A stretch of 64,000 nucleotides of DNA, from positions 1-64,000 of the forward strand of contig JBAXTZ010000015.1 in NCBI GenBank assembly GCA_037129925.1. The letters run 5' to 3'. Below the pieces are notes generated by a model, which worked only from the letters and a program-made list of their open reading frames with translations, was not told the DNA's origin and did no database searches. This DNA comes from Bacillota bacterium. Its GTDB lineage: Bacteria; Bacillota; Negativicutes; JBAXTZ01. The first letter of the stretch is position 1, and each line of letters begins with the position of its first letter. Both the position numbers and the translations under genes were made by a program. Below are positions 7,535 to 30,695 of the stretch, piece by piece.

Positions 7535-7568
7535 AAAACCCTCCTGAATTTTTGGAAATAATTATTCT

Positions 7569-14906: not shown

Positions 14907-15008
14907 AAATCGGCTACACAGGTAATTCGCGTCTCATACTTTAAACACAATCAATTATTGACGTTTGCCATATATTCTTTGTTGTTTTGCCATTATCAAC
15001 TTGCGTAC

Positions 15009-15401
15009 TCATTTTTTCATACGATCACAGGCTTGCCACGCGACACAATAGACCACTACAGGAATAATGAACAACACTAAGTGTAGAAATTTATCCAAGT
15101 CATAAACACCTAGCCTCCAAACTGCCAGATAAAAAGTGTACAAGGAAAATACCGCTGCACCTACGATCGCTATTTTACTATTTTGATAGATTCCTATAGC
15201 TGTGCTCATAAGCAAAACCAGCGTGAAATACTCCAATAATCCTGCTGTGTGTAAATTAAAGAATACCAATAATACATATCCTACTACTAGGATAACGTTA
15301 TAGATAACTGCAGGAATTAACAACTGCTTGTTTTGCCAGTTTTGTTCTTCTTTCTTTTCTTCAAGCGTCAAATTAGCGAATTGTTTACGATATTCATTCA
15401 T
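15009..15401 (-). CDS. Membrane protein fragment homologous to the C-terminal module of the zinc-ribbon membrane protein family (split from the 15450..17669 ORF)
   Basis: 130 aa. NWQNKQLLIPAVIYNV...VVYCVAWQACDRMKK aligns with the C-terminus of the 25281..27155 protein (FRQNKQLLIPAILFNV...ITVYSVAWQAAGRIKK). Confidence 0.55.
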   Translation of the reverse strand: MNEYRKQFANLTLEEKKEEQNWQNKQLLIPAVIYNVILVVGYVLLVFFNLHTAGLLEYFTLVLLMSTAIGIYQNSKIAIVGAAVFSLYTFYLAVWRLGVYDLDKFLHLVLFIIPVVVYCVAWQACDRMKK

Positions 15402-15449
15402 CGATTTCCCGGCAAAAACTGCACTGATTATCCCGGCACATATAAATAC

Positions 15450-17669
15450 CTATCCCGTCACTACTCCAAAAGCCACAAACCCTGCCGCTGCACCGCAAAA
15501 GAGAAAAAAATAAGCCGGAAATATCACGACCGCAGCAATTTTGCTTTTTTCTATCAAACCAACATTAAGCATCAAAAGCAACAAAACAGAAACTATGAAA
15601 AACGCATTAACAAACTCCGTTTCCCGAAAAAACATCAAACCCGAACAAATAATCAAAATGCAATGATTTATCCAAACCGACCTTGATATTGCTAAGCGGT
15701 TTTTTAAAAAACTATCTACTGAATTAACTTGAACACCTTCAATTTCCGAAGAAACGTCCAGTTTGCTCGGTTTAATTAAAGTCGATTTTGCCTGAACCAC
15801 ATCTCTTACAGAAGCCATTTGCTTTTCCGTTTGAACATTATCAACTTTTAACATTTCATAAACTACTGCAAGTGTCGGTAAATAAAGCAAACAATACAAA
15901 ATATGTCCCAATATCAAAGAACAATACAAAAGTACTTTCAGCAGAATTTTCTCAACAGGACTTTTTTGAAAAAACAAAAATACTACTATCACGCCAATAA
16001 AAAACGCCGTACCTGCCGCAAGAACAGATGTAGCAACATAGCGTAAATTCAACAAGAATAGCTTCCACTTATACCCTTTCACGAGCCTGCGGCTTTCTTG
16101 CATACAATCATCGGACGACATTTCTGGACAATCATTCATAATAAAAACCGATAAAGAGTATTCAAGATACGCAACAATTCCCGGCACAACGAATAATACC
16201 GTCCAAAATGCCGTCTTGATAAACGTCGAAAAAACTATCAAAAAGGATTTACGAAAATCTTTTATTCCGACAAATAATACGCTATAAATTGGCAAGCTAT
16301 CTTTCGCAATTTTACTAAGTAAAATGGCATAGCCCTTACTACTGACTATAATAAAAAATAATGAGCACAAGAGCGAAATTAAAAATAGCGGAAACAACCA
16401 ACCATAAGGCAATTTGTCGCGAAATGTTGATGAAAAAAACAAAAGATAAATCACCGGCAAAAAAACAAACACTGATTGCAAGATGAAAATTGAAACCAAT
16501 CCTTTAAAATGCGATTTTGCCGCAAGCATCCCATTTTTTCGAATTTCCAAATTGTCTTTGTTTATCCAAACAGCACTACGCTTTGTTTGCAACACCACCT
16601 GTGAATCTAGCATTTCCAATGTTTCAATGCAATGTTTACTCTGCCGGGGTTCGATTTCACTCACGCCAATTTCGACAGCTTTCACGCCCTCTTTCAACAG
16701 TCTATGATATTCCCATGCTGCAATAATAGACCGATAATACAGAAAAGCCGAAGCAATTATCAAGACACTTGAACCAATCAAGACTGTCCATTTGCTGACG
16801 GCAACTAACGCTGCAAGTAGCAAAATATACATTAACGAGGAGATCAATACGCAAATTCGATTACCCCGGAATATCCCAAATCCAATTAAAGCAACACCAA
16901 CGGAGACTAATAACCCGCCGAGATATGCTCCCATGCTAATAATTGCATATCCGGCTATCCCCCAGTGCATGATGGCCAATATTTGGAAGGAATTTTTTAC
17001 AGCTCTAATGCGCACTTTGTACTCAGATCCCATGATGCTGGTTTCCGAAAAATCTACAGATTTACCGCAACGCACGCAGAACAATGCCGTCTGATCCGAG
17101 GTGTCTTTTGTTTGAATTATCTCAATAACGTAATAACAAACCAGAAGGCACACCGATGCTGAAAGAACAAACTGCCCTTGTCCGATACAAACTAGCAACA
17201 TAAAGATCGCTAAAACGCAAAAATATACAAATATCTTGAAGAAATTTGCGCCTTTAGCTAGCTGACCAGCTAAGCGTAATTGTTTTTCACTGGTTTGTAC
17301 ACTATGTCTTGCAAAATCATCTTCAACGCAGTCTCGACAAAACAACAAGAATACCTGCTTCCTGTTCTTGAACAGGGAGTAAATACATAAGCCAAGCATG
17401 ATGAACAGCAATAATACGTTCAAATACTCGTTCTTGGCTCCGATTGCTAACACAACCATAAGCATTGGCATCAGTACAAACGCCAACGCCAAAAATGAAC
17501 TCCTGCGATGTTCCTTGACCAATATATCAACGCCGTTGTTTTCTGCCATTATGCTAAAATCGCTGCTGGCAGTCAGGTCATTACCGCATTTCATACAACA
17601 CGTTGGATTATCGTCGATACCCGCACCGCATTTTATACAATACATTTTTCTCTCCATGATAGTTTTCAT
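15450..17669 (-). CDS. Zinc-ribbon polytopic membrane protein (paralog family, member 1); probably truncated/split
   Basis: 739 aa. An N-terminal C4 zinc ribbon (MYCIKCGAGIDDNPTCCMKCGND) is followed by more than 15 predicted TM helices with interspersed CxDC and CVRCG motifs. It is a paralog of the 25281, 24153, 22056 and 20590 ORFs. Confidence 0.6.
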   Translation of the reverse strand: MKTIMERKMYCIKCGAGIDDNPTCCMKCGNDLTASSDFSIMAENNGVDILVKEHRRSSFLALAFVLMPMLMVVLAIGAKNEYLNVLLLFIMLGLCIYSLFKNRKQVFLLFCRDCVEDDFARHSVQTSEKQLRLAGQLAKGANFFKIFVYFCVLAIFMLLVCIGQGQFVLSASVCLLVCYYVIEIIQTKDTSDQTALFCVRCGKSVDFSETSIMGSEYKVRIRAVKNSFQILAIMHWGIAGYAIISMGAYLGGLLVSVGVALIGFGIFRGNRICVLISSLMYILLLAALVAVSKWTVLIGSSVLIIASAFLYYRSIIAAWEYHRLLKEGVKAVEIGVSEIEPRQSKHCIETLEMLDSQVVLQTKRSAVWINKDNLEIRKNGMLAAKSHFKGLVSIFILQSVFVFLPVIYLLFFSSTFRDKLPYGWLFPLFLISLLCSLFFIIVSSKGYAILLSKIAKDSLPIYSVLFVGIKDFRKSFLIVFSTFIKTAFWTVLFVVPGIVAYLEYSLSVFIMNDCPEMSSDDCMQESRRLVKGYKWKLFLLNLRYVATSVLAAGTAFFIGVIVVFLFFQKSPVEKILLKVLLYCSLILGHILYCLLYLPTLAVVYEMLKVDNVQTEKQMASVRDVVQAKSTLIKPSKLDVSSEIEGVQVNSVDSFLKNRLAISRSVWINHCILIICSGLMFFRETEFVNAFFIVSVLLLLMLNVGLIEKSKIAAVVIFPAYFFLFCGAAAGFVAFGVVTG

Positions 17670-17680
17670 TTCCTCGTCGG

Positions 17681-18457
17681 CTATTTGCCCAATTTCGCCA
17701 CTGAATTCACCAACGCCTGCACTGATTTTGTTTCAATTACTACGCTGCAATTCAATTCCGAACTTAACGCTAGAAATTTTCGTAAATCAATCTCGCCCTC
17801 GAAAAATTCCAAATGGCATTTTTCGCCGATAGCATCGTGCAAATGGAAATGAGTGATTTTGTCAGAATACTTTTCAAACACTGCGCTATCAGAATAACCA
17901 GCCGCATGATCATGTCCGACATCCCAAGTCAAAAATACATTGTCGTATTCCAGCAATAATTCCAACGCTTTGCGAATGTGCGGCATAGAAAAATTCCCGG
18001 TGTTTTCAACGCAGATTTTCGCCCGTTTTTCACGGGCAACCGGCAGAATGATTTCCAGCGATTGCTGCAAGTTACGAATAAAATCATCGCAATATTCATC
18101 GTACAGCCATACTTTCTTGTCCGGCAACTTAAAATGAACCCCATTATTCAAATGAATATTCAAAATATCAATCATCCCGGTCGGAACAGCGTTCAAAGTA
18201 TTATTTAGCAAATTGACGAAGCCATTACGAATGTCATCGTGAAACGATGCCAGATCAAGTTCTTCCGGCGCATGGATATTAAACCGCACCCCCTGCTCAG
18301 CAAAATTACGATAGTCAATTTTCGCAAGGTTGGCAACCGAATAATCCGGCAGATTCATGTTCAGTTCAACAAAACTCAGCCCAAGCTGCTTGCATAAAGC
18401 CACCTGCTGTTGCAGGGTTTTTAACTCGATTAATGTTGGCATACCGAAGTGTTGCAT
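17681..18457 (-). CDS. Sugar phosphate isomerase/epimerase (xylose-isomerase-like TIM barrel)
   Basis: 258 aa with metal-binding His/Asp/Glu patterns (NIHAPEE, VENT, WDVGHD, FHLHDA). Confidence 0.6.
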   Translation of the reverse strand: MQHFGMPTLIELKTLQQQVALCKQLGLSFVELNMNLPDYSVANLAKIDYRNFAEQGVRFNIHAPEELDLASFHDDIRNGFVNLLNNTLNAVPTGMIDILNIHLNNGVHFKLPDKKVWLYDEYCDDFIRNLQQSLEIILPVAREKRAKICVENTGNFSMPHIRKALELLLEYDNVFLTWDVGHDHAAGYSDSAVFEKYSDKITHFHLHDAIGEKCHLEFFEGEIDLRKFLALSSELNCSVVIETKSVQALVNSVAKLGK

Positions 18458-18484
18458 AAATTAACTCCTTGTTTAGTCAATAGT

Positions 18485-19294
18485 TCACTGATTACAATCA
18501 ATTGCTCGTTTCAAATTCCGGGAGTGCGTAATCCGGTCCAACAGCCAACCGTCTGAGTGGCGGATGAAGCGCCACTCTTCTTCAAACCGCGTCGGTGCGG
18601 ATTTGTTGCCGTCGACAACTTCGTTCGTCTCTGTGTCAACGGTGTAGTCAATCATCTCGCCGAGGATGTACGCAGTAAAAGCGCTAATACCGTATTTCGG
18701 ATTGGACACCTTGATAATTTCGCACTTTAGCAGCCTGATATCTTTGAGAATGTTGTGCTCATGCTGATTGTCCATATCGCGGTATGAATCCTGCCATTCT
18801 TCCTGCAGCCGCTCCGTCATGCAATCACGCAGACAACGGTTATCATGTTTCGCCCAGGCATCCTGCGCTTTAAAATAAGTATCGGTCACAACCTCAATCA
18901 GATATTGTTTGTCCCAGTTGATATCGGCTGCTGCATGACGTTGCAGCCGAAAATGACTCCACCTGCTTTGCAGTGGCCGGAGCATTTTGGCAACCGTCTG
19001 GCTAGTGCGGGTTTTGTACCAGATATAAAACGCAACCATCAGAAAAAAGATAATTATGAGCAGATAATCAAATGGCGTCCACGGTCCTGTCGAGCCTCCT
19101 GCGCCACCAGCATGTCCGCCAACAAAACCGCCGCCAAAACCGTGCGACCCACCACCGCCGCCATGTCCACCGCCCCCGCCACCGTGACCACCGCCACCGC
19201 CGCGGGCGAAGACAGACGAAGAACTTATTTTTAAAAAACCCAACAGAACCCAAGCATTAACATAGTATCTGATTGTTTTCATTATTTTCACCAT
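18485..19294 (-). CDS. Tim44-like (NTF2-fold) membrane-anchored protein with a Gly/His-rich segment
   Basis: Signal peptide, then GGGGGHGGGGGGHGGGGGSHGFGGG, one TM helix, and a C-terminal Tim44-like region (WRFIRHSDGWLLDRI). Confidence 0.45.
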   Translation of the reverse strand: MVKIMKTIRYYVNAWVLLGFLKISSSSVFARGGGGGHGGGGGGHGGGGGSHGFGGGFVGGHAGGAGGSTGPWTPFDYLLIIIFFLMVAFYIWYKTRTSQTVAKMLRPLQSRWSHFRLQRHAAADINWDKQYLIEVVTDTYFKAQDAWAKHDNRCLRDCMTERLQEEWQDSYRDMDNQHEHNILKDIRLLKCEIIKVSNPKYGISAFTAYILGEMIDYTVDTETNEVVDGNKSAPTRFEEEWRFIRHSDGWLLDRITHSRNLKRAIDCNQ

Positions 19295-19303
19295 TACATA
19301 ATT

Positions 19304-20566
19304 CTATAGCCCGTAGCGAAGAACGACCAGTAACTGCCATATGCCATCCAACGCTACAAAATTTCTCGACCAATTATCTACTTCCACGCCTATCCCCTCA
19401 AAAACCATTTTGCTGGCTTTGTTCTTGTCAGTATCCATTTTCCAAACCACTCCAACAGATTTTGGATAGAAGAACCCGCAACCGCTGTTGGATGTAATCC
19501 AGCCATTGTTGTTTTGCATGCCGGATGCGGCAAAGCCACCGAGACCAAAGCCAAAATAGGCATCAACATCTCCGATATGTATACCAGCCAACCCCTCAAC
19601 TGCTAATGTGCCCAACACCAAATCTGTAGTTATTTCATTATTGCGAGTTGATGCAATTGTATTAGGGAATAATCCATAAAAAAGTGTCGTATAAAATCCT
19701 GCTGTAGCGCGGGCACCAGCATAAAAACCGGGAGCGAGTTCAGTTTCATGGACCAAACCAACACGCACTCCCGCAGGCAAAGGATCAAAACCAACCTCAA
19801 GATAGTTGACGGATGCTTTGCTTTTCGGATCGGTTTTTGCTATTACTTTCTTGTCATCAGTCGACAAAATAGATTCTACTACAGCCAGTTTGGTTTGAGC
19901 TTCTGTTGATTCAGGATTTATTTTCAACACCGACTTATAATCAGCACTGGCTTTTTCGTATTCCCACAGACCATATTCGGCATTGGCTTTTTCCAGCAAC
20001 GCACCTGGCGCGCGCGGGTCTATTTTCAGCGCATCTTCGCAATCTGTCAATGCTTCCGAATACTGCAATAGCAGATTATGTAACCGGGCAAGTTTGATAT
20101 AGGCTTGAGCGTTGGTTTTATCAGCAGCGACAATGACATAAAAGTCTCCCAGCGCAACATAATATTTTTTCATTTCCATATAAGTACAACCGCGATAATA
20201 GCGTGCGTCGTTATTTGCGCCATCTTTCGCAAGCAACATAGAAAAATCTTTTATTGCTGAATCATATTCGCCCAACCAGTAATAAGCTTGTCCGCGGATG
20301 TTCAGCGCTTGAATATTACTAGCATCAATTGCCAAAATGCGATCAGCGAAATTTATCGCGTGACGATAGTTTCCTGCCACTATATTGTCGCGTGCATTTT
20401 CGCAATATTGTGCAATTTTGTTCTGTTGCTCCACAGCATCAATCGTATTGCCGTTTTCGGACACAAAAGCATGATTGGAAAATATTATCAAACATAATGC
20501 CAGTAATATACATGTTCGCAACATACTACCTCCAGAGCCGTCTATCTTCATGATATTGCCAACCAT
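19304..20566 (-). CDS. Secreted TPR-repeat protein
   Basis: 420 aa with a signal peptide and multiple TPR units (AQAYIKLARLHN, YYRGCTYMEMKKYYVALGDF). Confidence 0.6.
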   Translation of the reverse strand: MVGNIMKIDGSGGSMLRTCILLALCLIIFSNHAFVSENGNTIDAVEQQNKIAQYCENARDNIVAGNYRHAINFADRILAIDASNIQALNIRGQAYYWLGEYDSAIKDFSMLLAKDGANNDARYYRGCTYMEMKKYYVALGDFYVIVAADKTNAQAYIKLARLHNLLLQYSEALTDCEDALKIDPRAPGALLEKANAEYGLWEYEKASADYKSVLKINPESTEAQTKLAVVESILSTDDKKVIAKTDPKSKASVNYLEVGFDPLPAGVRVGLVHETELAPGFYAGARATAGFYTTLFYGLFPNTIASTRNNEITTDLVLGTLAVEGLAGIHIGDVDAYFGFGLGGFAASGMQNNNGWITSNSGCGFFYPKSVGVVWKMDTDKNKASKMVFEGIGVEVDNWSRNFVALDGIWQLLVVLRYGL

Positions 20567-20589
20567 TTATTTTTTGTTAGCTTCCGAAG

Positions 20590-22074
20590 CTACATTTCGT
20601 CCCGGTTATTCGCGTCCCGACAAAGATACTTCTTCCACACCGCAAAAACGAGTAAAACCGATGCTACCATCACTAAATCGCTACGCCAACCAGAAACATC
20701 CAGAAAGTATTCCTTTGTTTGTGTTCTGTCCAAAATCGCGAGCGCTTGCGAAAAATTCCAGCCAAACGCTATTCCGATAGCAGCCGCTAGATGCTTGGTC
20801 TTAAATACAGCAAGCACAATAAACATTGCAAATAAATACTGACCAATCCAATCTAATACAGTGTAATAATCAGAGAAGCAAACATTTAAAATCATAAAAA
20901 ATGACGCTACTATGAATGCCGCGCCGTACTTACTAAAGCCTTTTCGCTGAATGCTTGCAACGAAAGAAAACATCCCAATGCCTACAAGAATCGAAGCGGA
21001 CAAATAATAAATAAACGAAAGGCCAAAATATTTCCAGAAATTCACGCCGCTGTAATCAGGAAGATGCGTACTGCTAACAAACGCTAATCTTCCAAGAAAA
21101 CTAAGTGCAAAGACGGCAAATCCTAATAACGTGTATATCAGTAATATTCTCCACGCCCTTTTATTGTCGAAAAACACATAGCTTGGGCTACCGTTCTGAC
21201 GGTGCTCAAACCACATTACACAAATAACGCCACCAGCTATCGCAAACCAGTTCTCACCTAACATCCTAAACAAAGCCAAATATTCCACAGAAGTTTTGCT
21301 GAATTTCAGAACGTCAAAAGTGACTTTTTTTAATCCGAACAGTGAAAAGATCAGACTCACTGCAATACTTATAACAGAAAAAATGACGATAAATAACAGA
21401 CTTTTGCCAATCGCTTTTAATGCAGCCCGGTTATTCTTTTCTGGAACTGCAACCAGCTCATCCTTTGTTGACACTTCAACAGTGTTTTTGCTTATTGCAG
21501 TTTGAACCGAGTTGTTTTGTTCTTCTTCAAATGCTATTTGATTTTTGATTTCTTTTGCCAGTCTGTCATAGACTAAACTAGCCTTTATTCCCTTATAATA
21601 GCAGTAGACAATAAAAAAGATAATAGTAATCTGAATCCAAATTAGTCCGGAGGTCGCGGCAGTTAATCCGGCCAACAACACAATGAACACCAATAACGAC
21701 AGGAACAATGCGGTTTGATATTTGCGATATATACCCCACCCCAGTATCAAAAAAATCAACCCAACCACTATATCGAACATTTGTCCATCACAGTCGTAAA
21801 CAAACCACCAGGCAAGAAACCAATTCATCCAAGCTAAACTCTTCAACTTTGCAATCGCTTCTTTGAGCTGCGCTTTCTTATTCGAACCAAGAATTCGCGC
21901 TTCGGAGTAATCAATCTCCTGACCGCAGCGAACACAGTATATCGCTTGCTGATTTTTTGGTTTTCTGGTTCTTCTATACTCAGAATAAGCAAAAGCAAAA
22001 TAAATCAATGCCGTCACGGCGGCAAAATAATAGCCAGTCACTATGTCCACAATAATTATTCCGACGGCAAACAT
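20590..22074 (-). CDS. Polytopic membrane protein, paralog-family member (distal part; probably one gene with the 22056..22502 ORF)
   Basis: 494 aa. It contains the family motif AIYCVRCGQEIDYSEARILGS about 45 aa from its N-terminus. It overlaps the upstream ORF by 19 nt in a different frame. Confidence 0.5.
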   Translation of the reverse strand: MFAVGIIIVDIVTGYYFAAVTALIYFAFAYSEYRRTRKPKNQQAIYCVRCGQEIDYSEARILGSNKKAQLKEAIAKLKSLAWMNWFLAWWFVYDCDGQMFDIVVGLIFLILGWGIYRKYQTALFLSLLVFIVLLAGLTAATSGLIWIQITIIFFIVYCYYKGIKASLVYDRLAKEIKNQIAFEEEQNNSVQTAISKNTVEVSTKDELVAVPEKNNRAALKAIGKSLLFIVIFSVISIAVSLIFSLFGLKKVTFDVLKFSKTSVEYLALFRMLGENWFAIAGGVICVMWFEHRQNGSPSYVFFDNKRAWRILLIYTLLGFAVFALSFLGRLAFVSSTHLPDYSGVNFWKYFGLSFIYYLSASILVGIGMFSFVASIQRKGFSKYGAAFIVASFFMILNVCFSDYYTVLDWIGQYLFAMFIVLAVFKTKHLAAAIGIAFGWNFSQALAILDRTQTKEYFLDVSGWRSDLVMVASVLLVFAVWKKYLCRDANNRDEM

Positions 22075-22502
22075 TGAAAACAGAACGCAGGCCTCAGAAT
22101 ATTGAATTTTTTATGAAATGCTCCGGCTTTTCGAAACAGCCGTTCACTGACCACCACATTATGATGCTGCAAATCTGCAGTCACACAGTCTTTGCAATAC
22201 ATCAGTAACTCATGCTCAGGATGTTTAAACCTCGAATTAATAAGTATTCCTAGCAAATATACTACACATAGTGTGGTAGCAATGATATTTTTAAATATTA
22301 TCGGTGCGATCACAGCAAACATCGCCAATAGCTCCAACATAATGGTCAACAGCCAATGTTCGGAACTGCAGCTGATTATTTTTAATACACCGTTCGTCGC
22401 CACCGCATTGCAAAAATCATGGCTGGCTGTCATATCGTTGCCGCATTTCTCACAATATAGTGAATTAGAATCAACAACACAGCCGCATTTTATGCAATAC
22501 AC
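22056..22502 (-). CDS. Zinc-ribbon membrane protein, paralog-family member (proximal part)
   Basis: 148 aa. It carries MYCIKCGCVVDSNSLYCEKCGNDMTASHDF, two TM helices and a CKDC motif, co-linear with the first 150 aa of the 15450..17669 protein. Confidence 0.6.
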   Translation of the reverse strand: MYCIKCGCVVDSNSLYCEKCGNDMTASHDFCNAVATNGVLKIISCSSEHWLLTIMLELLAMFAVIAPIIFKNIIATTLCVVYLLGILINSRFKHPEHELLMYCKDCVTADLQHHNVVVSERLFRKAGAFHKKFNILRPAFCFQCLPSE

Positions 22503-22529
22503 GCTTCTCTCCTTTAGCTTGTCATACGA

Positions 22530-22640
22530 TTATTTCTTTTCATCTACAACCGGCGCAGCAATTTCCTTCACGCCCGATTTCTTATCCATCAACGTCGAAA
22601 TATACGCCGTCAGCATACCAATGCCACCGTTGTCGTGCTC
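22530..22640 (-). pseudogene. Remnant of an SPFH/flotillin gene 3' end (duplicate of 27181..27290)
   Basis: About 90% nucleotide identity to the 3' end of the SPFH gene. It would encode ...NGGIGMLTAYISTLMDKKSGVKEIAAPVVDEKK*, versus ...GGMGMLTAYISTLMDKKSGATEIVAPVMDEKK* in the intact gene. Confidence 0.7.
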
Positions 22641-22745
22641 CTAAATCTTCCTTAAATTCCGGATTTAAGTACCTTGAGAGAAAACTTCTGGCAATTCTCC
22701 GCTATCGCTTTGGCCGCATCAGAATCATAAAGTTCGTTATTAATT

Positions 22746-23882
22746 TCATTTAACCAAAAAATCATACCAATTTTTGCGATCAATACATACTACATTCGCA
22801 TTTTCGTAAGCATCCAGAAACTCTTGCGGCGCACGGAACGCCCGCGATGGTGCGCTCCACTTGAATTCATAGCCGTGTAGTTGCCCGTCACGTTCTTCGA
22901 TATAATCAATCTCTTTGCCGGCATGGGTGCGCCAGAAATAACTGTTAACCAAATAATTACAGTTGATGTTGCGTTTCATCCGCTCGGCGATACAGAAATT
23001 TTCCCATAGCGCGCCTTTATCATTGCGCAGTTCCGGCGGCGCAAAATTCTGAATCAGGCTGTTTCGCACGCCGATATCATAGAAGTAAATTTTCTTTTTG
23101 CGACTCAGTTCATTGCGCAGATTTCTTGAAAACGGCGACAAGCGGAAAATCACAAAACACTTTTCCAACAAATCGATATAGTTTTCAACAATAGTCTTGG
23201 AAACTCCCAGCAAACCGCAAAGCTCATTGACCGAAACCTCGCTGCCAATTTGCAGTGCTAGCGCTTGTAATAATTTTAACAGGATTTCCGGCCGCCTGAC
23301 CCGTTCGTGTTCCAATACATCTTTGTATAAATAACCGCCGGTCAATTCATCCAACTCCTGCCGCGCTTCATCATCGCTGCTGGTAAATATTTGCGGATAA
23401 AAGCCAAAGCGCATTATTTTGTCACTCACAGCTTCAAACGGTAATATTTGCACCTGACTCTCAATTTCAGCCAGAGCCAGCGGCGGCAACAAAAAGTGTC
23501 GCGCCCTGCCGGTAAGCGGTTCGCCGGTTTTATTCGCCAGGTCGAAGCTGGACGAACCAGTTGCAATAACCTGAATATCTGGCAGTTCATCCGCGATGAT
23601 CTTCAAAATCATCCCGATGTTTTCTACCCGCTGCGCTTCATCAAGAACAATCAGCCGGTAGTTCCCCAAATAATCCCGCAGTGTTTCTTTATTCTGATTA
23701 GCAAGCGCAATCTGGTTCGGCAATAGGTCACAGTTGATATAACGGCTGGTGCCTGGATGTTTGGCGAGAATCGACTTGACAAGTGTGGTTTTCCCCACGC
23801 GCCGCGCACCAAACAGCACTACAACGCGGCCTTTGAATAATTGTTTCTCAATCTGAACGCCAAGCAATCTTTCAAAAAACAT
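22746..23882 (-). CDS. AAA ATPase, AAA_14 + DUF4143 family
   Basis: 378 aa. It has a Walker A (GARRVGKTT) and Walker B (LIVLDEAQ), and a C-terminal DUF4143-like region. Confidence 0.7.
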   Translation of the reverse strand: MFFERLLGVQIEKQLFKGRVVVLFGARRVGKTTLVKSILAKHPGTSRYINCDLLPNQIALANQNKETLRDYLGNYRLIVLDEAQRVENIGMILKIIADELPDIQVIATGSSSFDLANKTGEPLTGRARHFLLPPLALAEIESQVQILPFEAVSDKIMRFGFYPQIFTSSDDEARQELDELTGGYLYKDVLEHERVRRPEILLKLLQALALQIGSEVSVNELCGLLGVSKTIVENYIDLLEKCFVIFRLSPFSRNLRNELSRKKKIYFYDIGVRNSLIQNFAPPELRNDKGALWENFCIAERMKRNINCNYLVNSYFWRTHAGKEIDYIEERDGQLHGYEFKWSAPSRAFRAPQEFLDAYENANVVCIDRKNWYDFLVK

Positions 23883-23980
23883 TTGTCTTTCTCCGATATT
23901 ATGTCAAATTTGGGATTTATACATCCCGAATTCATTATAATTTAGATCGTTTGATTGTTCAAACAAAATCGCCTGACGGA

Positions 23981-24049
23981 TTACCACCACCGTCGCATTG
24001 CAAAAATCACGGCTGGCGGCTGGTCATTGCCGCATTTCAAGCAATACAT
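23981..24049 (-). pseudogene. 22-aa remnant of a zinc-ribbon family gene 5' end
   Basis: The minus strand reads MYCLKCGNDQPPAVIFAMRRWW*. Its nucleotide sequence matches the conserved 5' ends of the zinc-ribbon paralogs, with an internal deletion fusing the first CxxC to the CGND half-site. Confidence 0.55.
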
Positions 24050-24152
24050 ACAATCTCCATAATTTGATTTGCGTCGCCAACACTTATTTCAAGCTTTCTT
24101 CAGGTAGAACCATAAATTTCCCGCCCGCTTCAAGGTGGTTTTCCAGAAACCA

Positions 24153-25262
24153 TCAAATCTCTTTATCGATAATTATTTTTCGATAGACATCTCGCTTTAG
24201 ATTTTTGTATCGAGCATAAGACTTTAATCCTCGCACATAGGTCAAAACAATAACTGCCTTTAGAAAGATTACACTATTAAAAATATAAACAATGCCGGTC
24301 GCTTTGACCATTACCCAAGCATAAAAAATAACCATAACCAACGAAACTATCATTGCTATTCGGGAAAACTTGGATATTCTCCAAGCTAGCAAACCGAAAA
24401 GTAACGCAGTCACTAATTCAACGACTCTCAGCTGCTCCCCTGATATTAACGCGTAAAACATGAATGCCACATTGAATAGAGCTAAAATCTTCATGTTCCA
24501 CGCTTCATACATACTACTATCCAGTTTGTCTGGATCAATGTATTCAAGACCTTCAAGCGTCACAAATCGACCGCAGGCACAACAATGAGTCGCAACCGCA
24601 TCCTTTTGTATCCGTTGTAATTTTTGACGCTCCAGAGCTTTGAAAGTGGTCAGCATGTTCTTATTATCAAATACCAAATACATCATCAGTAATAAACATG
24701 GTGCATACAATGATAAACTTTGCAAGCTGAAAAGGCTGTCGTAACGCCAGCCATATTTCAAGTTTTCATAAAAAAAATCAAACATTACGACAAAGACTAT
24801 CACCAAATATTCTAAATTGCTTTTGTATGAATATAAATTGTCGTAATACCATTCAACATATTTTTTCTCAACATTAATAATATTTTTTGCCACAGCCCCG
24901 CTCAATTTGCTTTTAAAACAATCCGGGCAGACCATCAGCGGCTCTTGAAACCTTAGTTTTCCACGCGATACAACCGCCAGCAATATCACCAAATACACGG
25001 TTAGGAGTATCGAAAGATAAACATTGATATAACACCAATTCAGAATCAATGCGCCAATTGCGCTGAAAATAATCCATTTCTTTTCAGCACTCTTATGCTT
25101 TACAGTAGTGTACATTTCACTTGGCGTTGAAATCAGAAATTTTTCCAGGCATCGCTTAGCGACTCGCAAATCGGTTCCGCACTGAACACAATTAATTGCT
25201 TCAACTGAATTTTCACTTCCACATTCAGGACAATACATACCGCACCTCATCAAACTTGTCAA
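24153..25262 (-). CDS. Zinc-ribbon polytopic membrane protein (paralog family)
   Basis: 369 aa. It carries MYCPECGSENSVEAINCVQCGTDL, a CPDC motif and CCACGRFVTLEGLEYIDPD between TM helices. Confidence 0.6.
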   Translation of the reverse strand: MTSLMRCGMYCPECGSENSVEAINCVQCGTDLRVAKRCLEKFLISTPSEMYTTVKHKSAEKKWIIFSAIGALILNWCYINVYLSILLTVYLVILLAVVSRGKLRFQEPLMVCPDCFKSKLSGAVAKNIINVEKKYVEWYYDNLYSYKSNLEYLVIVFVVMFDFFYENLKYGWRYDSLFSLQSLSLYAPCLLLMMYLVFDNKNMLTTFKALERQKLQRIQKDAVATHCCACGRFVTLEGLEYIDPDKLDSSMYEAWNMKILALFNVAFMFYALISGEQLRVVELVTALLFGLLAWRISKFSRIAMIVSLVMVIFYAWVMVKATGIVYIFNSVIFLKAVIVLTYVRGLKSYARYKNLKRDVYRKIIIDKEI

Positions 25263-25280
25263 CTCTGGCTGTCCATAACA

Positions 25281-27155
25281 TTACCCGTTCTCTGACGCAT
25301 TGATCTTTTTAATCCGCCCAGCTGCCTGCCATGCAACCGAGTACACCGTAATCGGAATAAGAAACAGCGCCAACTCCAGATAATATTCTGGATGATGTAT
25401 TATTATTCCGATGTCGAAATAATCACGGACAAACGTGTACGCAAGGAAGGCAGCCGAAGCTACAACACAAATCCTCATTCTGCGACAGATTCCAAACGCC
25501 GCCACTAAAAACAACGCTGCAACCAGATAATAGAAGTCGAATATTCCCACACGCTCATAGACTGCCGCAACAATATACCACGTCGCATATACCACGTTGA
25601 ACAGTATCGCCGGTATCAGCAACTGTTTGTTTTGCCGGAATTGCAGTTCATGTTGCTCTGATTCGGTTAATTGCGGAAACAACAGCTTATATTCTAGTAG
25701 TGCCTTGATGGCAGCTATCCCCGCGACCGCTCCTATCGCCGTGAATGCAACACCGAAGATTAAAGCTTTTGGATGAAAGACCTGAATCGATCCAACAAGC
25801 AGGATTAAATAAGTTGGTAATAGCGCGTATGCGCTTAATTTGCTTTTCTGCAACAAGCCAATATTTGTAATCATCAACAAACTTACAGCAAAGAAAAATA
25901 AGGTGTCCGAAAACTGCCTGCTCCAGAAATACATCAAGCAGGCGCAAACGGTGAGAATGAAATAATTTATCCGGACAGTTTTTTCGACATCCCTTGAACA
26001 ACGAGTTGCTTTACTGTAAACACTGTCAATGGCGTTTTCTCTAGTGCTTCCCATGGCGCTCTTTGCGTTCCCGCTATACCATAACGCTTTGATCGCCCGA
26101 TAGTAGCCAACAGCCATAGCAACTGTCAACGATAGTTCCAATGGCAGGTTTCCTTTTATTGCAAAACTTACCGCCATCAATAAAAATATAATCAAGAATA
26201 CAACCGCGGAAATAGCAACACAAACCCGCTTACGGCGATAAATACCAAAACCGCAAGCGGCGATTATTGCAGCAATACCAATTTCCAGAATATCAACCTT
26301 TACGAAGACCGACAGTAATATCCATACAGCTATGCCCCAGTGTGCATAAGCCAAAAATCGCGTCTCGTTGCCTTTTTCGGAATCATCCGTTTCGCTCGCA
26401 CCATCAACTTCTGTTTCCTCTGTTTCTTGAATGTCGTCAATTCCTGATTCTTTCTTTTTGCGCTCGATGCTGCTTTCCAAATCGTTCAGTTTGCAAAGAC
26501 TACCCGCTTCCGAATAATCTGCTGGCATACCGCACTTCATACAGTATAGCGCGAGCATCTCTTCATATCTTTTGGAGTTTTTCCGATATAAATACAGATA
26601 CGCAAAAAACAACAGCCCCGGCAACGCGTCTAAAAAGTATTCTTCTATAAAAAGTGTTATGATTGGCAAGTGATTATAAAAATATGTGGTTACAATAATC
26701 ACAAATACTATTGGCAGAATAATTCCCAAAATTGACACATTGCCGCTGCACTTCGAATACAAATTGCGCCAGTCGCTCAGGTTTGATGCGATGTCGCTAT
26801 TCGCGACACCGCATCTTTTCAATTCGACCACAGCACAGTTCGGACATAATAGAAGCGGATAGTATCCCGGCAATTTGTTCAAAACGGCGAGAAACGCCAA
26901 AACCAACATGCCAAGACAATAGCACAACGACACAATTTCGTTGTGTGCTAACCAGGGAACGATTACCGCCGAGGCTGCGATTGCCACCACCACTAATCTT
27001 GTTGTGCAGTTTTTTTTGTTTACGCGCAACATATCTGCAACATTAACTGAATCCGCTGTCTCATAGTATGTACGCTGTTCAGCCAATGCATAGCCGCACT
27101 TCGAACAACTAAGACTCATATAGCTGGTGCTAGCGCCGCATTTTATGCAATACAT
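25281..27155 (-). CDS. Zinc-ribbon polytopic membrane protein, apparent full-length family member
   Basis: 624 aa. It carries MYCIKCGASTSYMSLSCSKCGYAL, CPNC and YCMKCGMPADYSEAGS motifs and an acidic loop (ETEETEVDGASETDDSE). Its C-terminal module is homologous to the separate 15009..15401 ORF. Confidence 0.65.
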   Translation of the reverse strand: MYCIKCGASTSYMSLSCSKCGYALAEQRTYYETADSVNVADMLRVNKKNCTTRLVVVAIAASAVIVPWLAHNEIVSLCYCLGMLVLAFLAVLNKLPGYYPLLLCPNCAVVELKRCGVANSDIASNLSDWRNLYSKCSGNVSILGIILPIVFVIIVTTYFYNHLPIITLFIEEYFLDALPGLLFFAYLYLYRKNSKRYEEMLALYCMKCGMPADYSEAGSLCKLNDLESSIERKKKESGIDDIQETEETEVDGASETDDSEKGNETRFLAYAHWGIAVWILLSVFVKVDILEIGIAAIIAACGFGIYRRKRVCVAISAVVFLIIFLLMAVSFAIKGNLPLELSLTVAMAVGYYRAIKALWYSGNAKSAMGSTRENAIDSVYSKATRCSRDVEKTVRINYFILTVCACLMYFWSRQFSDTLFFFAVSLLMITNIGLLQKSKLSAYALLPTYLILLVGSIQVFHPKALIFGVAFTAIGAVAGIAAIKALLEYKLLFPQLTESEQHELQFRQNKQLLIPAILFNVVYATWYIVAAVYERVGIFDFYYLVAALFLVAAFGICRRMRICVVASAAFLAYTFVRDYFDIGIIIHHPEYYLELALFLIPITVYSVAWQAAGRIKKINASENG

Positions 27156-27180
27156 TTTTCCTCACACCATCCGAATCAGA

Positions 27181-29280
27181 TTATTTCTTTTCGTCCATAA
27201 CCGGCGCAACAATTTCCGTCGCGCCCGATTTCTTATCCATCAGCGTCGAAATATACGCCGTCAGCATCCCCATGCCACCCTCTTGTCCTTGCACGAGAAT
27301 GTCCGGCACGATTTTTATATTACTGTCGGAGATGCGTTTGAACACTTCGATTACGGTAACATTTTCCGGCGATATTGCTTCGCACTGTTTGCGGTAGGCT
27401 TCGGCGGTCGAGTTACCGATGGCGAGGATTTTCTGGGCCTCGGCGTCACCGATGGCTTTGATTCCGGCGGCTTCACCTTCGGCGGTTAGTTTTCTGGATT
27501 CCTTGGCGCCCTCGGCTTTTTTGATCGACGACAGTTTTTCCTGTTCGGCTATTTTCACGCCGATTTCGGCTTGCATAAGATTCTTTTGCTGATCAGCTTC
27601 GGCGCGGGATTTCTCAGTCGCAATCCGGGTTTGCTCGGCGAGTTGCTGTTCCTTGTACATTTCCTTGCGCTGCTCGGCGATAATCCGCATGGTCTGGGTT
27701 TCCATCAATTCCTGCGGCAACTGAATCTGACAGATCAGCACCGAAACACACTCCACATGATAATCGGTCAACTCCTGACGCGCATGTAATTCGGCTTTTT
27801 TCTGTTCCTCCTGCCGGTCTTGCAGGAAGCTCATGGCTTTGGTCGATGACGCCTGGTTACGGAACGACGAGTCAATCATCGGATGAATAACATGGTCGAT
27901 GAGATTTTCTACCGAGCCGATTTTTGCCACCATGTACGGCGCCTGATCCGGACGCACCCGGATAATTACTTTCACCGATACCATAATCAGGAAGCCGTCT
28001 TTAGATGTAACTTGCAACGAATTGAATTTGGTGTCCTTATCGTTGTCGTTCCAGTCGATTGTGATATTGGTAGTGTTTACAACGTATGGAATAAATGCCA
28101 GCGGATTGAGATAGTATATTCCCGGCCCGACTACTTCGCGCTGAATACCGCGATAGCCCTGCGGCACTACATAGCGCTCGATACCCGGCAACAACTGAAC
28201 TTCCGGCTTGCCTGCTTCCGTTCCCATTTCGGTTTGATCCGGTTCCCGGCCGACATTGGAAACGATTACTGCGACCTCGCCGCGTTCAACCTTGGCAACA
28301 TTATGCAACTGAACGGAAAACATGTAGGGATTGATATAGTAAGTACCGGGGCGCAGAACTTCCAATTGCGGTCCACGCTGACCGCCTGCGTTCAGAAAAG
28401 CCGAAGCATTCTGGAAATTATCATGTTCACAGACACTGGCAGCAACATATTCGTTGGGCGGCAATTCCTTACCGTCCAGCGCTGTAACCAAACCGACCTT
28501 TTCCGAAGGCACGATCAGCGCATCAGCTACCGCTACCACAAACAATGAAGTGTTCACCCGATAGGTTCCGGGAAACATGATGTTAATTTGCGGGCCTTTT
28601 TGGCCGCCCGCTGCCAGGAAAGTTTCGCCGTCCTGAAAGGACTTGTGTCCTTCCACGCTCTTGGCCAATAACCGGCCGCTGTCAATCGGCAATCCGTCCA
28701 TCGCCGTCACAATTCCGATTTTACCTTTGGGGATATGCAGCGAATTAATCTTGTTTACGCGAAACAACACCGGGTTTATCCGATATTGTCCCGGTGTCAG
28801 ATATTCAATCTGTGGACCTTTCTGACCACCGTTGTTGAGAAACGCCTCGGCATCTTGAAACGAATTGTGACCGCTGATAACCTTGGCAAATATTCGGTCC
28901 GGCGGTAGTGATTCGCCGTCAATTGCTTCGACCAAACCGACTTCGTCTTCGGCAATTTCTACGAAACCACTTTTATTGGTTACGTACAAAAACGGTATCA
29001 GAAAATGCAAGCCCGGTCCCAAAGTTTTCGCGCGTACGCCGACCTCACTGTTACGGGCTACAACCTGACCGCTGGGCATTTTTTTACCGAACCAACGGCG
29101 CTCAATGATTGCAATCTGACGGCCGTTGACCACCACGATAGAATTTCTTATGATGATCAACAGCACAATCAACGCTACAACCACCCAGATAATCGTGAAG
29201 ATTGTTGACAATGAGAGTGTTCCATTAAGTAGTGATGACATTTTTTCCTCCTCGAATTTTATTAATCCTTCCATAGCCAA
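27181..29280 (-). CDS. SPFH/band-7 (flotillin/YqiK-like) membrane protein with a triplicated N-terminal repeat
   Basis: 699 aa. An N-terminal TM helix is followed by three ~75-aa repeats (HNSFQDAEAFLNNGGQKGPQ / HKSFQDGETFLAAGGQKGPQ / HDNFQNASAFLNAGGQRGPQ), an SPFH core, and a flotillin-like EA-rich coiled coil. Confidence 0.8.
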   Translation of the reverse strand: MAMEGLIKFEEEKMSSLLNGTLSLSTIFTIIWVVVALIVLLIIIRNSIVVVNGRQIAIIERRWFGKKMPSGQVVARNSEVGVRAKTLGPGLHFLIPFLYVTNKSGFVEIAEDEVGLVEAIDGESLPPDRIFAKVISGHNSFQDAEAFLNNGGQKGPQIEYLTPGQYRINPVLFRVNKINSLHIPKGKIGIVTAMDGLPIDSGRLLAKSVEGHKSFQDGETFLAAGGQKGPQINIMFPGTYRVNTSLFVVAVADALIVPSEKVGLVTALDGKELPPNEYVAASVCEHDNFQNASAFLNAGGQRGPQLEVLRPGTYYINPYMFSVQLHNVAKVERGEVAVIVSNVGREPDQTEMGTEAGKPEVQLLPGIERYVVPQGYRGIQREVVGPGIYYLNPLAFIPYVVNTTNITIDWNDNDKDTKFNSLQVTSKDGFLIMVSVKVIIRVRPDQAPYMVAKIGSVENLIDHVIHPMIDSSFRNQASSTKAMSFLQDRQEEQKKAELHARQELTDYHVECVSVLICQIQLPQELMETQTMRIIAEQRKEMYKEQQLAEQTRIATEKSRAEADQQKNLMQAEIGVKIAEQEKLSSIKKAEGAKESRKLTAEGEAAGIKAIGDAEAQKILAIGNSTAEAYRKQCEAISPENVTVIEVFKRISDSNIKIVPDILVQGQEGGMGMLTAYISTLMDKKSGATEIVAPVMDEKK

Positions 29281-29297
29281 AATATTAAGGTTTTTAT

Positions 29298-30695
29298 CTA
29301 TAGTTCACAAAGCGCCAGCAACCATAGCGGTACGACTGAAACGGCGCCAGCCAGCCGAAATTCCCGCTTGCTGACCATAAGTGCTTCGGGCGCGGCAAAT
29401 TCGGTGGCGAATGCATTCAACCCGCGCAGGTCTTTGGTAGTCACTTCATTGCGATATTTTGTTTCTACCGGAACCAGCCGGTTGCGTTTGCAAATCACCG
29501 CATCCACCTCGTATGTCTTTTCGCGCCAATAATATGTCTTGAAGAATTTCTTCTCGGCATAGTCCACTGCCATCCGGGCAACAACGGTTTCAGCGAGCAT
29601 TCCCTCGCGAACGGAGTCGAATTCCGTCTCCCGCACAATGGCATTCCGCAATCCATTGTCAATCACAAATATTTTTCGGTTTTTCCGGATGACTTTTCCG
29701 GTATTTGGCGAATAATTTTCCAAAGAGCACAGCAAACAGGCGCGTTCTAAATAACCGGCATAATTCATCGCAGTTATTGTTTCTACACCGACGGTTTGCC
29801 CAATCGATGCCCAGGAAAACGCCTGACCGTTGTTTGCTGCAACATAAGCTATAATTCTTTCGAGTACCAACGGGCTTTTTACATCAAAGAAACTTACAAT
29901 ATCCCGATACAGACCCGATGCCAAAATATCCACAGCCAGACGGTTTTGCCATAGGTCGATATTCTTGTGTTCAAAGTATTCCGGATATCCGCCTGCCAAT
30001 AAATATTCCTGCAACAAATTAGTTGTCTGGTTTTCAAATAATGATAATTTGAGATAATCAGGCGCGATCGTCTGATAGAAAGCCGCCGGGCTGTCGAAAC
30101 AGCAGGGAGCGACTACTTCTGGCAGCGCTTCGGACTGCTTATACCGGCTGTGAAAACGTGCGAACTGCCGGAAATTCAGCGGAAATATATGCAAGTAATC
30201 GATTCTGCCCAAAAGCGATTCTTTAGCGCCTTCGAACAAGTGTGCTGCCGAAGAACCACTAACTACAAATTTTATATCGAACTGTTTGTCGTAATAACTC
30301 TTGATATAGGTTTGCCAGCCAGTAAGTTGATGCACTTCATCAATAAACACGTAGATCTTGGCGCTCAACATCCGGACATCTTCACCAACTATTTCGCGTA
30401 AAAACAGCTCAATTACAGTTGCCAAATCGTTCTTGGCATTGAAAATCAGCGGATCGTCACCGCTAAACAGCAAAATCCGTCGCGGTTCAATACCGGACGC
30501 AATGAGTTTTTGGATCGCCTGAAAAATCAGCGTCGATTTACCAACCCGGCGCGGCCCGCTGATTGCCAGGATCCGCCGCTCGCTAAAATGCGTTTGAATA
30601 TCTTGCAGTTCGGAGCGTTCAATTTTGTCAGCCAACTCTTTGTTTGGCGGTAACCCAACCCACCACGGATTGCTGCGCGCTAAAAATTCCAACAT
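29298..30695 (-). CDS. AAA ATPase, AAA_14 + DUF4143 family
   Basis: 465 aa. It has a Walker A (GPRRVGKST) and Walker B (VFIDEVHQ), and a DUF4143-like C-terminal domain. Confidence 0.7.
   Translation of the reverse strand: MLEFLARSNPWWVGLPPNKELADKIERSELQDIQTHFSERRILAISGPRRVGKSTLIFQAIQKLIASGIEPRRILLFSGDDPLIFNAKNDLATVIELFLREIVGEDVRMLSAKIYVFIDEVHQLTGWQTYIKSYYDKQFDIKFVVSGSSAAHLFEGAKESLLGRIDYLHIFPLNFRQFARFHSRYKQSEALPEVVAPCCFDSPAAFYQTIAPDYLKLSLFENQTTNLLQEYLLAGGYPEYFEHKNIDLWQNRLAVDILASGLYRDIVSFFDVKSPLVLERIIAYVAANNGQAFSWASIGQTVGVETITAMNYAGYLERACLLCSLENYSPNTGKVIRKNRKIFVIDNGLRNAIVRETEFDSVREGMLAETVVARMAVDYAEKKFFKTYYWREKTYEVDAVICKRNRLVPVETKYRNEVTTKDLRGLNAFATEFAAPEALMVSKREFRLAGAVSVVPLWLLALCEL

Follow-up and report, generated by a model that had tools for sequence, protein, structure and literature searches.

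A strain-variable locus around a conserved SPFH gene, with putative zinc-ribbon membrane partners, in an uncultured Bacillota lineage

Positions 15,009 to 30,695 of the window (the whole 64,000-nt stretch of Bacillota contig JBAXTZ010000015.1 that was analysed) hold a gene for an SPFH/Band_7 protein, K, and a set of genes for polytopic membrane proteins with an N-terminal zinc ribbon, referred to here as ZnR proteins. From comparison of the sequences, the locus is tentatively read as a hot spot of recombination that varies among strains and is centred on a single, strongly conserved SPFH gene, with the ZnR proteins as putative partners of K; a further ZnR paralogue, B/A, is found at a separate site beside a TIM-barrel gene. 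The main support for a partnership is twofold, with two ZnR paralogue types found in one slot 25–28 nt after the SPFH gene across three locus configurations, and with the junction between the SPFH 3′ end and the ZnR 5′ end itself forming a duplicated unit; an ancestral operon explains both more easily than chance does. A preliminary description of the stretch had proposed a decaying, gene-converting array of three tandem units, with a DUF4143 ATPase gene, an SPFH gene, or both at the head of each. The open reading frames (ORFs) it listed are all present on the minus strand, which carries every gene between 12.6 and 34.4 kb of the window, in the 5′ to 3′ order L, K, J, I, ZnR 5′ stub, H, SPFH 3′ orphan, G+F, E, D, C, B+A, LysE, and autotransporter. 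The SPFH and ZnR genes and remnants, with the two genes that follow G+F, are listed below (TM, transmembrane).

27181..29280, minus strand: K, SPFH/Band_7 protein (Pfam Band_7)
25281..27155, minus strand: J, intact ZnR polytopic membrane protein, 624 aa (N-terminal module, four CxxC pairs, BLASTP)
24153..25262, minus strand: I, shortest ZnR member, 369 aa (N-terminal module and one 3-TM unit)
23990..24048 (approximate), minus strand: 5′ remnant of a ZnR gene (repeat families, translation, alignment)
22528..22628, minus strand: orphan SPFH 3′ end (repeat to 27179-27279, translation, tblastn)
20590..22502, minus strand: G (22056-22502) and F (20590-22074), one frameshifted ZnR gene of the GF type
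19304..20566, minus strand: E, TPR protein, 420 aa (Pfam TPR_1)
18485..19294, minus strand: D, Tim44-like domain protein, 269 aa (Pfam Tim44)
15009..17669, minus strand: B (15450-17669) and A (15009-15401), one TAG-interrupted J-like ZnR gene

Five configurations of this locus were compared, namely those of the window, L001, L002/L003, L088-L092, and L093, with common flanks of PGDH, DUF1015, M20, and ThiF genes on one side, and TIM-barrel, LysE, autotransporter, and SBP genes on the other. An SPFH gene is present in four of the five, with the ZnR genes variously present, absent, interrupted by an insertion sequence (IS), or relocated. The four configurations of the relatives are:

L001: SPFH, intact GF-type ZnR, TPR, Tim44-like; no ATPase; an 88-aa remnant of an F-type C-terminal domain upstream
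L002/L003: 46-aa remnant of L, SPFH, ~3 kb occupied by small, unrelated ORFs, TIM-barrel, LysE; ZnR, TPR, and Tim44 genes all lacking
L088-L092: Peptidase S41, SPFH, J-type ZnR, Tim44 remnant, URO-D, PNP, TIM-barrel, LysE
L093: TIM-barrel, 515-aa orphan, TIM-barrel 3′ remnant, intact GF-type ZnR, LysE; no SPFH gene in 22 kb

Copy number thus varies among relatives, as the preliminary description had implied, and the locus is therefore not a fixed housekeeping operon. In the window, J starts 25 nt past the SPFH stop codon, and a ZnR start lies 25–28 nt past that codon in three configurations, the slot being filled by J in the window, by the GF-type gene in L001, and by a J-type gene in L088-L092. 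The last of these is represented by P0134, an orthologue fragment of the J type (74% identity) that lies directly after SPFH and is cut at 106 aa by an IS3-family element. The GF-type gene follows the SPFH gene in L001 and the SPFH 3′ remnant in the window, with the order SPFH-GF-TPR-Tim44 common to both and with gaps of 9–28 nt (E begins 23 nt after GF, and D 9 nt after E). The older operon appears to be SPFH-ZnR(GF)-TPR-Tim44-like, co-directional and tightly spaced, which is intact in L001 and of which the Tim44-like gene is a remnant in L091.

The SPFH gene of L001 runs unbroken into the point at which the orphan SPFH 3′ end lies in the window, and positions 22629-27178 (J, I, the stub, and H) are therefore an insertion relative to L001, with a repeat of ~147 nt at its bounds. 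On either side of this 4.65-kb segment is a 101-nt repeat of the SPFH 3′ end, with the remnant at 22528-22628 being 91% identical over 101 nt to positions 27179-27279; the SPFH remnant of the preliminary description is thereby borne out. It encodes the last 32–33 codons of SPFH plus the stop (GGIGMLTAYISTLMDKKSGVKEIAAPVVDEKK), matching at 84% over 32 aa in tblastn, and together with the spacer and ZnR 5′ end that follow it makes up the ~147-nt repeat, the two copies of which are spaced 4651 nt apart. In the simplest history, a foreign allele of the locus (SPFH-J-I...H) would have entered by recombination through SPFH homology, with an illegitimate join close to where the resident SPFH gene ends. 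A polymorphic-toxin-like logic of orphan C-terminus plus immunity was considered and rejected, because the orphan tail shares 84% identity with that of the resident gene and is also similar to the tails of other strains, unlike a variable toxin tip. The ZnR 5′ stub between I and H begins MYCLKCGND..., with its two CxxC knuckles collapsed, and then runs out of frame; it is nearest to the G type, with 24 nt 96% identical to 22404-22427.

The site of B/A lies between the TIM-barrel gene and LysE, apart from SPFH. It is empty in L002 and L091, and is occupied, after the TIM-barrel gene, by the GF-type gene in L093, the sole locus found in a metagenome scan with P0133. Paralogue types therefore swap positions, with the GF type found after SPFH in L001 and the window and after the TIM-barrel gene in L093, which lends some support to the cassette-like character proposed earlier, although not to tandem units. 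In L093, a 35-aa TIM-barrel 3′ remnant (9858-9962) stands directly upstream of the ZnR gene, with the full TIM-barrel gene (7329-8123) 1.7 kb further up and the 515-aa orphan ORF between them. Because this remnant and the SPFH remnant of the window both show a duplicated 3′ end of the upstream gene, there is a hint of a common insertion mechanism. In L001, a phage replisome-organiser/RepL-like gene (14405-15376) lies right after the SPFH-GF-TPR-Tim44 operon, suggesting that a mobile element abuts the locus there.

The ZnR ORFs are mutually homologous, with all-against-all BLASTP giving E-values of 1e-4 to 1e-26 at 24–38% identity (B-G 1e-26, B-F 1e-20, B-J 8e-16 plus 1e-12, A-J 8e-25, F-J 4e-12, G-J 7e-7, I-J 3e-8, and I-B 1e-4). 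The single architecture first ascribed to five ORFs holds in respect of paralogy, though these are four gene loci (B/A, G/F, I, and J) spread over five to six ORFs and not five independent genes. A profile of the module that they share, an N-terminal region of ~350 aa, matches only the ZnR ORFs when run against the six frames of the window. Similarity between paralogues at the DNA level is confined to the first ~25–150 nt at the 5′ end, and neither the gene conversion proposed in the preliminary description nor a recent expansion is borne out, because the paralogues are just 24–38% identical in amino acid sequence and hence old.

All four ZnR genes carry CxxC pairs at about residues 3, 17, 104, and 200, so that the conserved N-terminal C4 ribbon and additional CxxC pairs described earlier stand as proposed. 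The first two pairs form the ribbon, C-x2-C-x11-C-x2-C, with the third and fourth lying in long Lys/Arg-rich loops (3–12 Lys+Arg each), each loop preceded by a hydrophobic stretch of ~45 residues, a length that fits a helical hairpin. The module accordingly runs in the order ribbon, two TM helices, CxxC, two TM helices, CxxC, and a 3-TM unit, the last bearing the motifs G-[WF]-G-I-[YF]-R and Y-Y-[RK]-[GA]-I-K-A...Y. Given the positive-inside rule and the even number of helices between the pairs, the ZnR proteins are probably N-in inner-membrane proteins with all four CxxC pairs facing the cytoplasm, and pairs three and four may form a second, split zinc site. Searches of the span with zinc-ribbon, Band_7, and DUF4143 models recover Band_7 in K and AAA_14 plus DUF4143 in H and L, whereas the zinc-ribbon families of Pfam (Zn_Ribbon_1, Zn_ribbon_3, and DZR) score 16–22 bits against the ZnR proteins, under their gathering cutoffs of 25–27. 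No Pfam, NCBIfam, or PADLOC model was found for the ZnR proteins.

As first described, these are polytopic membrane proteins, with about 8 TM helices in I, 14 in J and GF, and 20 or more in B+A. Beyond the common module their composition differs. J consists of the N-terminal module, an acidic insert, and three 3-TM units (independent E-values of 8e-33, 7e-6, and 2e-7), and B+A is collinear with J (N-terminal module, 3-TM unit, and two further 3-TM units) apart from an inserted DUF975-like domain, for which residues 392-565 of B score 27.2–29.4 bits against DUF975 (PF06161), under the cutoff of 34.8. GF adds to the N-terminal module a single 3-TM unit and a C-terminal domain of its own with ~7 TM helices, and I ends after its single 3-TM unit; the probable start of I is the ATG at 25238, giving 361 aa and matching P0132. 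The conserved C-terminal module of the preliminary description is thus a feature of J and B+A, but not of GF, which has a different domain, or of I, which has none. The variable domains (the middle of B and the C-termini of GF and J) show no significant similarity to each other or to the DUF6159 protein discussed below. An AlphaFold2 model of I alone, built from an 8-row alignment, reached a predicted local distance difference test (pLDDT) score of 57.6 and a predicted TM-score of 0.37. Small proteins of unrelated source (P0158, P0193, P0196, P0215, and P0231) also contain the 3-TM unit, either by itself or following a zinc ribbon, with the consensus G-[WF/Y]-G-I-Y-[RK]-K-S-R ... Y-Y-[RK]-G-[IV]-[KR]-[GA]-T..Y-H-[RK]-[LF]; since no such protein has a Pfam family, the unit may be an undescribed small membrane domain.

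Outside this lineage the full module was not found. An exhaustive HMMER scan of 1.84 billion representative proteins recovered it only in P0131 (equivalent to B), P0132 (I), and P0133 (intact GF), besides the J fragment P0134, with ~400 other matches comprising the ribbon only, with or without two TM helices, and in a few cases the 3-TM unit alone. Word-indexed searches with J and the module profile yielded nothing beyond the query itself and near-identical proteins, and a phage or plasmid origin of the family was rejected, there being no tblastn match among 50,697 phage and 72,556 plasmid records. On these searches, the ZnR family appears to be restricted to one lineage of uncultured Bacillota.

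Two of the four ZnR genes are disabled, GF by a frameshift and B/A by an amber stop, in agreement with the split genes first reported. In GF, the reading frame is lost at an A6 run (22107-22118); the G and F ORFs share 19 nt, and become a single frame once one A is added back to CATAAAAAATTC. Unbroken orthologues exist in L001 (P0133, 637 aa) and L093 (645 aa), and a second sample carries P0005, the same frameshifted 148-aa product with one substitution. B and A share a frame, with a single TAG (15450-15452) between them across which J aligns (34% identity, 257 aa), and P0131, a near-identical B protein from another assembly, stops at the same residue. ORF A has its own ATG and could yield a separate 4-TM product.

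Substitution patterns indicate that both SPFH and ZnR genes are kept by selection. The ratio of non-synonymous to synonymous substitution rates (dN/dS) is 0.017–0.032 for SPFH against its relatives (94–98% amino acid identity), and 0.12–0.29 for the GF-type ZnR gene (74–79%). Judged by these values, the ZnR genes are evidently real genes under purifying selection, though looser than that on SPFH. The frameshifted GF of the window has a dN/dS of 0.19, compared with 0.18 for the intact pair, and the frameshift is therefore recent. For the neighbouring genes, values are 0.24 for the TPR protein (74% identity to L001), 0.13 for the Tim44-like protein (75–77% to L001), and 0.08–0.09 for the TIM-barrel protein (84–86% to relatives).

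K matches Band_7 (PF01145) at 90.5 bits against a cutoff of 23.6 (E 1.8e-25), and this is its sole Pfam family even at E<=5. Translation probably begins, in line with the orthologues, at the ATG at 29241 (MSSLL..., 686 aa). The protein comprises an N-terminal TM helix (residues ~26-44), three beta-rich repeats of ~75 aa, the SPFH core, and an extended coiled coil. The N-terminal hydrophobic helix is present in every aligned orthologue, and the repeats between it and the Band_7 core number three in K and three to five in orthologues (P0011-P0130), with the consensus ...GHNSFQDGEAFL.NGGQKGPQ...PG.YRINP.LF... More than 5,400 homologues (5404 counted), at 53–65% identity, are spread over Ignavibacteriota, Bacteroidota, Acidobacteriota, Nitrospirota, Desulfobacterota, Spirochaetota, Elusimicrobiota, and Negativicutes, and are labelled ‘YqiK’ by JGI at the COG level only. 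Identification of K as HflK/C was ruled out, its score being 22.2 bits against the HflC model TIGR01932 (cutoff 134.4) and 18.2 bits against NF008259 (cutoff 427). An AlphaFold2 model of K is of low confidence (pLDDT 57.7); Foldseek searches with this low-confidence model matched structures of HflK/C, QmcA, prohibitin, erlin, stomatin, and flotillin, with flotillin ranked under major vault protein (MVP), prohibitin, erlin, and HflK/C.

In the genomes of 80 SPFH orthologues from other phyla, the gene downstream of SPFH is not conserved, and none of the 80 loci has a ZnR module, a TPR/Tim44 pair, or a DUF4143 gene within 8 kb. Only two neighbours recur, one being a DUF6159 7-TM protein of Ignavibacteria, encoded next after SPFH in L005-L010, and the other a soluble eight-CxxC protein of ~350 aa in three Acidobacteria (L047, L051, and L059), 5–9 nt past the SPFH stop. 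Separate lineages seem to have recruited different partners, some of them zinc-rich, to the same SPFH family.

Pairs of SPFH proteins and membrane partners are well known, among them stomatin/QmcA with NfeD, HflK/C with FtsH, and YqiK with YqiJ. The general logic of the locus is that of such operons, in which the gene of an oligomeric SPFH scaffold is co-transcribed with that of the membrane protein it encloses or regulates. However, no NfeD or protease domain was detected by Pfam in the neighbours of SPFH, which rules out an SPFH-NfeD pair, and unlike NfeD, FtsH, and YqiJ the ZnR family is new, found in one lineage, and dispensable. In Bacillus subtilis, integral membrane proteins, one of which has a zinc ribbon, recruit an SPFH protein to the membrane (PMC8581546; bioRxiv 10.64898/2026.02.06.704340; bioRxiv 10.1101/2021.02.15.431232). 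The likeness to this pspA-ydjGHI (samGHI) operon, raised in the preliminary description, is sound as an analogy, in that an SPFH gene adjoins membrane-protein genes with a zinc ribbon, although this is a generic theme. ORFs of 125 aa or longer from 10.8 to 34.4 kb gave no PspA_IM30 match, and K, unlike YdjI, which is soluble, carries an N-terminal TM helix of its own as well as three additional beta-rich repeats; the locus is therefore not a member of the PspA-YdjGHI group, from which it differs further in having ZnR proteins of ~8 to 20 or more TM helices and four conserved CxxC pairs. Small proteins with an N-terminal C4 ribbon followed by TM helices are likewise very common in bacteria, but the full module of ~350 aa is found in this lineage only. 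As for polytopic proteins of the DUF975/DUF6159 type, the likeness is limited to the sub-threshold DUF975-like insert of B, the C-terminal domains having no significant similarity to DUF6159. By analogy, then, the locus might be placed, with reservations, within the theme of an SPFH scaffold plus an operon-encoded membrane partner, with a new, lineage-restricted family in the partner role.

Under such a partnership, K would be a membrane-attached oligomeric scaffold like the SPFH proteins of solved structure, and the ZnR proteins would act as accessory inner-membrane partners or clients of this anchored oligomer. Their cytoplasmic zinc knuckles could provide a docking surface for SPFH, the best analogue being the recruitment of YdjI (SamI) by YdjG/YdjH (SamG/SamH), with the pairing of NfeD with stomatin-like proteins and of FtsH with HflK/C as further parallels, and with variable C-terminal TM modules built on the common N-terminal module, and the partnership would be facultative and lineage-specific. 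Several observations weigh against it. The main weakness is that SPFH and ZnR each occur without the other, with L002 retaining SPFH without any ZnR gene and L093 retaining a GF-type gene without adjacent SPFH. Furthermore, B/A is not adjacent to SPFH, half of the ZnR copies in the window are broken, and the model of I is poor (pLDDT 57.6). Additionally, none of the 80 SPFH orthologues of other phyla lies near a ZnR module, so the scaffold does not depend on such a partner.

Alternatively, the ZnR proteins may be functionally independent of SPFH, serving as lineage-specific sensors or as transport-related or membrane-homeostasis factors, with their adjacency reflecting a shared hot spot between ThiF and TIM-barrel/LysE. 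We regard this alternative as doubtful, though it accommodates the intact GF-type gene of L093 with no SPFH in 22 kb, the SPFH of L002, the separate site of B/A, the mostly solo SPFH orthologues elsewhere with their unrelated downstream neighbours, and the recurrence of the 3-TM unit in the small unrelated proteins noted above. What it fits poorly is the occupation by two paralogue types of one slot 25–28 nt after SPFH in three configurations, and the fact that the duplicated unit is the SPFH-3′/ZnR-5′ junction.

The two ATPase genes and the TIM-barrel gene of the span are:

29298..30695, minus strand: L, AAA_14 + DUF4143 ATPase, 465 aa (Pfam, PADLOC)
22746..23882, minus strand: H, AAA_14 + DUF4143 ATPase, 378 aa (Pfam, PADLOC)
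17681..18457, minus strand: C, TIM-barrel AP_endonuc_2 protein (Pfam)

H scores 144 bits against DUF4143 (3.9e-42) and 93 bits against AAA_14 (1.5e-26), and L 110 bits against AAA_14 (8.9e-32) and 98.5 bits against DUF4143 (4.4e-28). By both Pfam domains and PADLOC they are full-length members of COG1373/PDC-S01, with H matching PDC-S01 at 8.6e-144 (PDLC04789, 477 bits, full length) and L at 3.9e-63 (PDLC04787, 212 bits), and yet they are just 22% identical to each other. Members of this group are stand-alone genes of unknown function and candidate defence genes, and nothing in the analysis ties them to SPFH/ZnR; PDC-S01 is a single-gene defence candidate in PADLOC, of candidate status only. 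Only the 46-aa C-terminal remnant of L is found in L002, L is absent upstream of SPFH in L001 and L088-L092, and H is absent between SPFH and GF in L001. Because they are absent or decayed in relatives and absent near SPFH elsewhere, H and L are judged to be independent stand-alone insertions outside the SPFH/ZnR module, and not the heads of units. The role of components given to them earlier is correspondingly dropped, with H lying in an insertion missing from L001, L reduced to a remnant in L002, and no such gene within 8 kb of any of the 80 other SPFH genes.

The ATPases are also part of the case for a defence or conflict island, in which the ZnR proteins, perhaps jointly with SPFH, would serve to exclude phages, abort infection, or confer immunity to bacteriocins, and DUF4143 and PDDEXK_9 genes would be further defence genes. 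Presence, absence, and rearrangement among close relatives, diverged paralogues, pseudogenes, the IS3 insertion, and the phage replisome-organiser gene nearby would all suit such an island, as would the PDC-S01 matches of H and L and a PD-(D/E)XK ATPase encoded at 32719-34413; DUF4143, a family of unknown function, is itself classed in the PD-(D/E)XK superfamily (PMC3424549). Nevertheless, the defence role floated in the preliminary description finds no direct support, and we consider it unlikely. PADLOC gives no matches for the SPFH, ZnR, TPR, or Tim44 proteins, the phage and plasmid collections hold no ZnR relatives, and a ZnR dN/dS of 0.12–0.29 shows no gene-wide diversifying selection. Moreover, the conservation of SPFH is that of a housekeeping gene, PDC-S01 itself has only candidate status, and a literature search on SPFH and anti-phage defence yielded no SPFH-based defence system.

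A more speculative proposal, which we judge quite improbable, is that the ZnR proteins serve as client or adaptor subunits, swapped as interchangeable cassettes, in a large, membrane-anchored SPFH cage resembling MVP. Zinc knuckles would fasten the client beneath the cage, and conflict involving phages or the envelope would drive turnover. The cage is predicted to consist of a TM anchor, a beta-repeat barrel wall, an SPFH shoulder, and a cap helix. The top Foldseek matches of the K model (pLDDT 57.7) are MVP chains, with E-values of 6e-11 to 1e-8 and TM-scores near 0.18, and a fragment of the MVP R1-R7 repeats alone matches the same pLDDT 57.7 model at 1.2e-4. No Pfam Vault/MVP match was found in K, nor an MVP match when the family profile was run against PDB sequences, and the MVP homologues so far reported from bacteria form a separate, sequence-similar set in Myxococcales, Cytophagales, and Oscillatoriales (bioRxiv 10.1101/872010). 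The vault-like appearance of K is best treated as a lead, not a finding.

The three tandem cassettes with which the preliminary description began, each headed by a DUF4143 ATPase and/or SPFH and converting one another, would account for AAA genes upstream of both K and the SPFH remnant and for the short, highly similar 5′ tracts of the paralogues, but are hardly credible given ATPases that are 22% identical mutually, missing or degraded in relatives, and absent near 80 SPFH orthologues, a B/A gene that follows a TIM-barrel gene and has neither head, and paralogues too old (24–38% identical) to have been homogenised.

The remaining genes of the span comprise the TPR, Tim44-like, and TIM-barrel genes which, with the ZnR 5′ stub, were missing from the earlier account of its content. 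E, with Pfam TPR_1 at 1.7e-15 and related families, has an N-terminal hydrophobic segment and a Gly/aromatic-rich C-terminal region, the latter covering residues ~235-420 (~185 aa) with alternating hydrophobics, kept in L001 and present in none of the 80 other SPFH loci. An autotransporter beta-domain gene adjoins the locus, suggesting that the host is a diderm Firmicute, and given such a host the C-terminal region of E could be an outer-membrane beta-barrel anchor. D matches Tim44 (PF04280) at 63.4 bits against a cutoff of 29.6 (E 3.3e-17), its score for NCBIfam Tim44_TimA_adap falling below cutoff (29.5 vs 80), and its signal-like N-terminus is followed by a Gly/His-rich stretch, a single TM helix, and then the Tim44 domain. 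The Gly/His-rich tract, GGGGGHGGGGGGHGGGGGSHG, derives from a 21-nt tandem repeat (19152-19201), the sole tandem repeat of the region, in which Rfam, tRNA, and tandem-repeat scans otherwise gave nothing relevant. Promoter-like sites (50, compared with 37 +/- 6.5 in shuffled sequence) and terminator-like sites (21, compared with 17.5 +/- 3.8) are near the shuffled expectation. Upstream of L lie genes for a secreted-looking protein of 539 aa that matches no Pfam or NCBIfam family (30859-32478) and for an AAA-ATPase_like + PDDEXK_9 protein (32719-34413, the PD-(D/E)XK ATPase mentioned above), and these two genes together with L replace an SBP/DUF4855 pair at the same position in L002.

For annotation, these results mean that the DUF4143 ATPases should not be counted as part of the SPFH system, and that two of the ZnR genes are disrupted. 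The ZnR module is new, without a Pfam or NCBIfam model, and is of limited general importance because it is apparently confined to one uncultured Bacillota group. Were the vault-like proposal true, the locus would be a natural site of ‘specificity-module exchange’ in an SPFH microcompartment. If, as we tentatively favour, the ZnR proteins are SPFH partners, the locus would represent a natural experiment in which a near-invariant SPFH protein is combined with several diverged, swappable, and dispensable membrane clients, and this lineage could help to show how SPFH cages recognise the clients they enclose.

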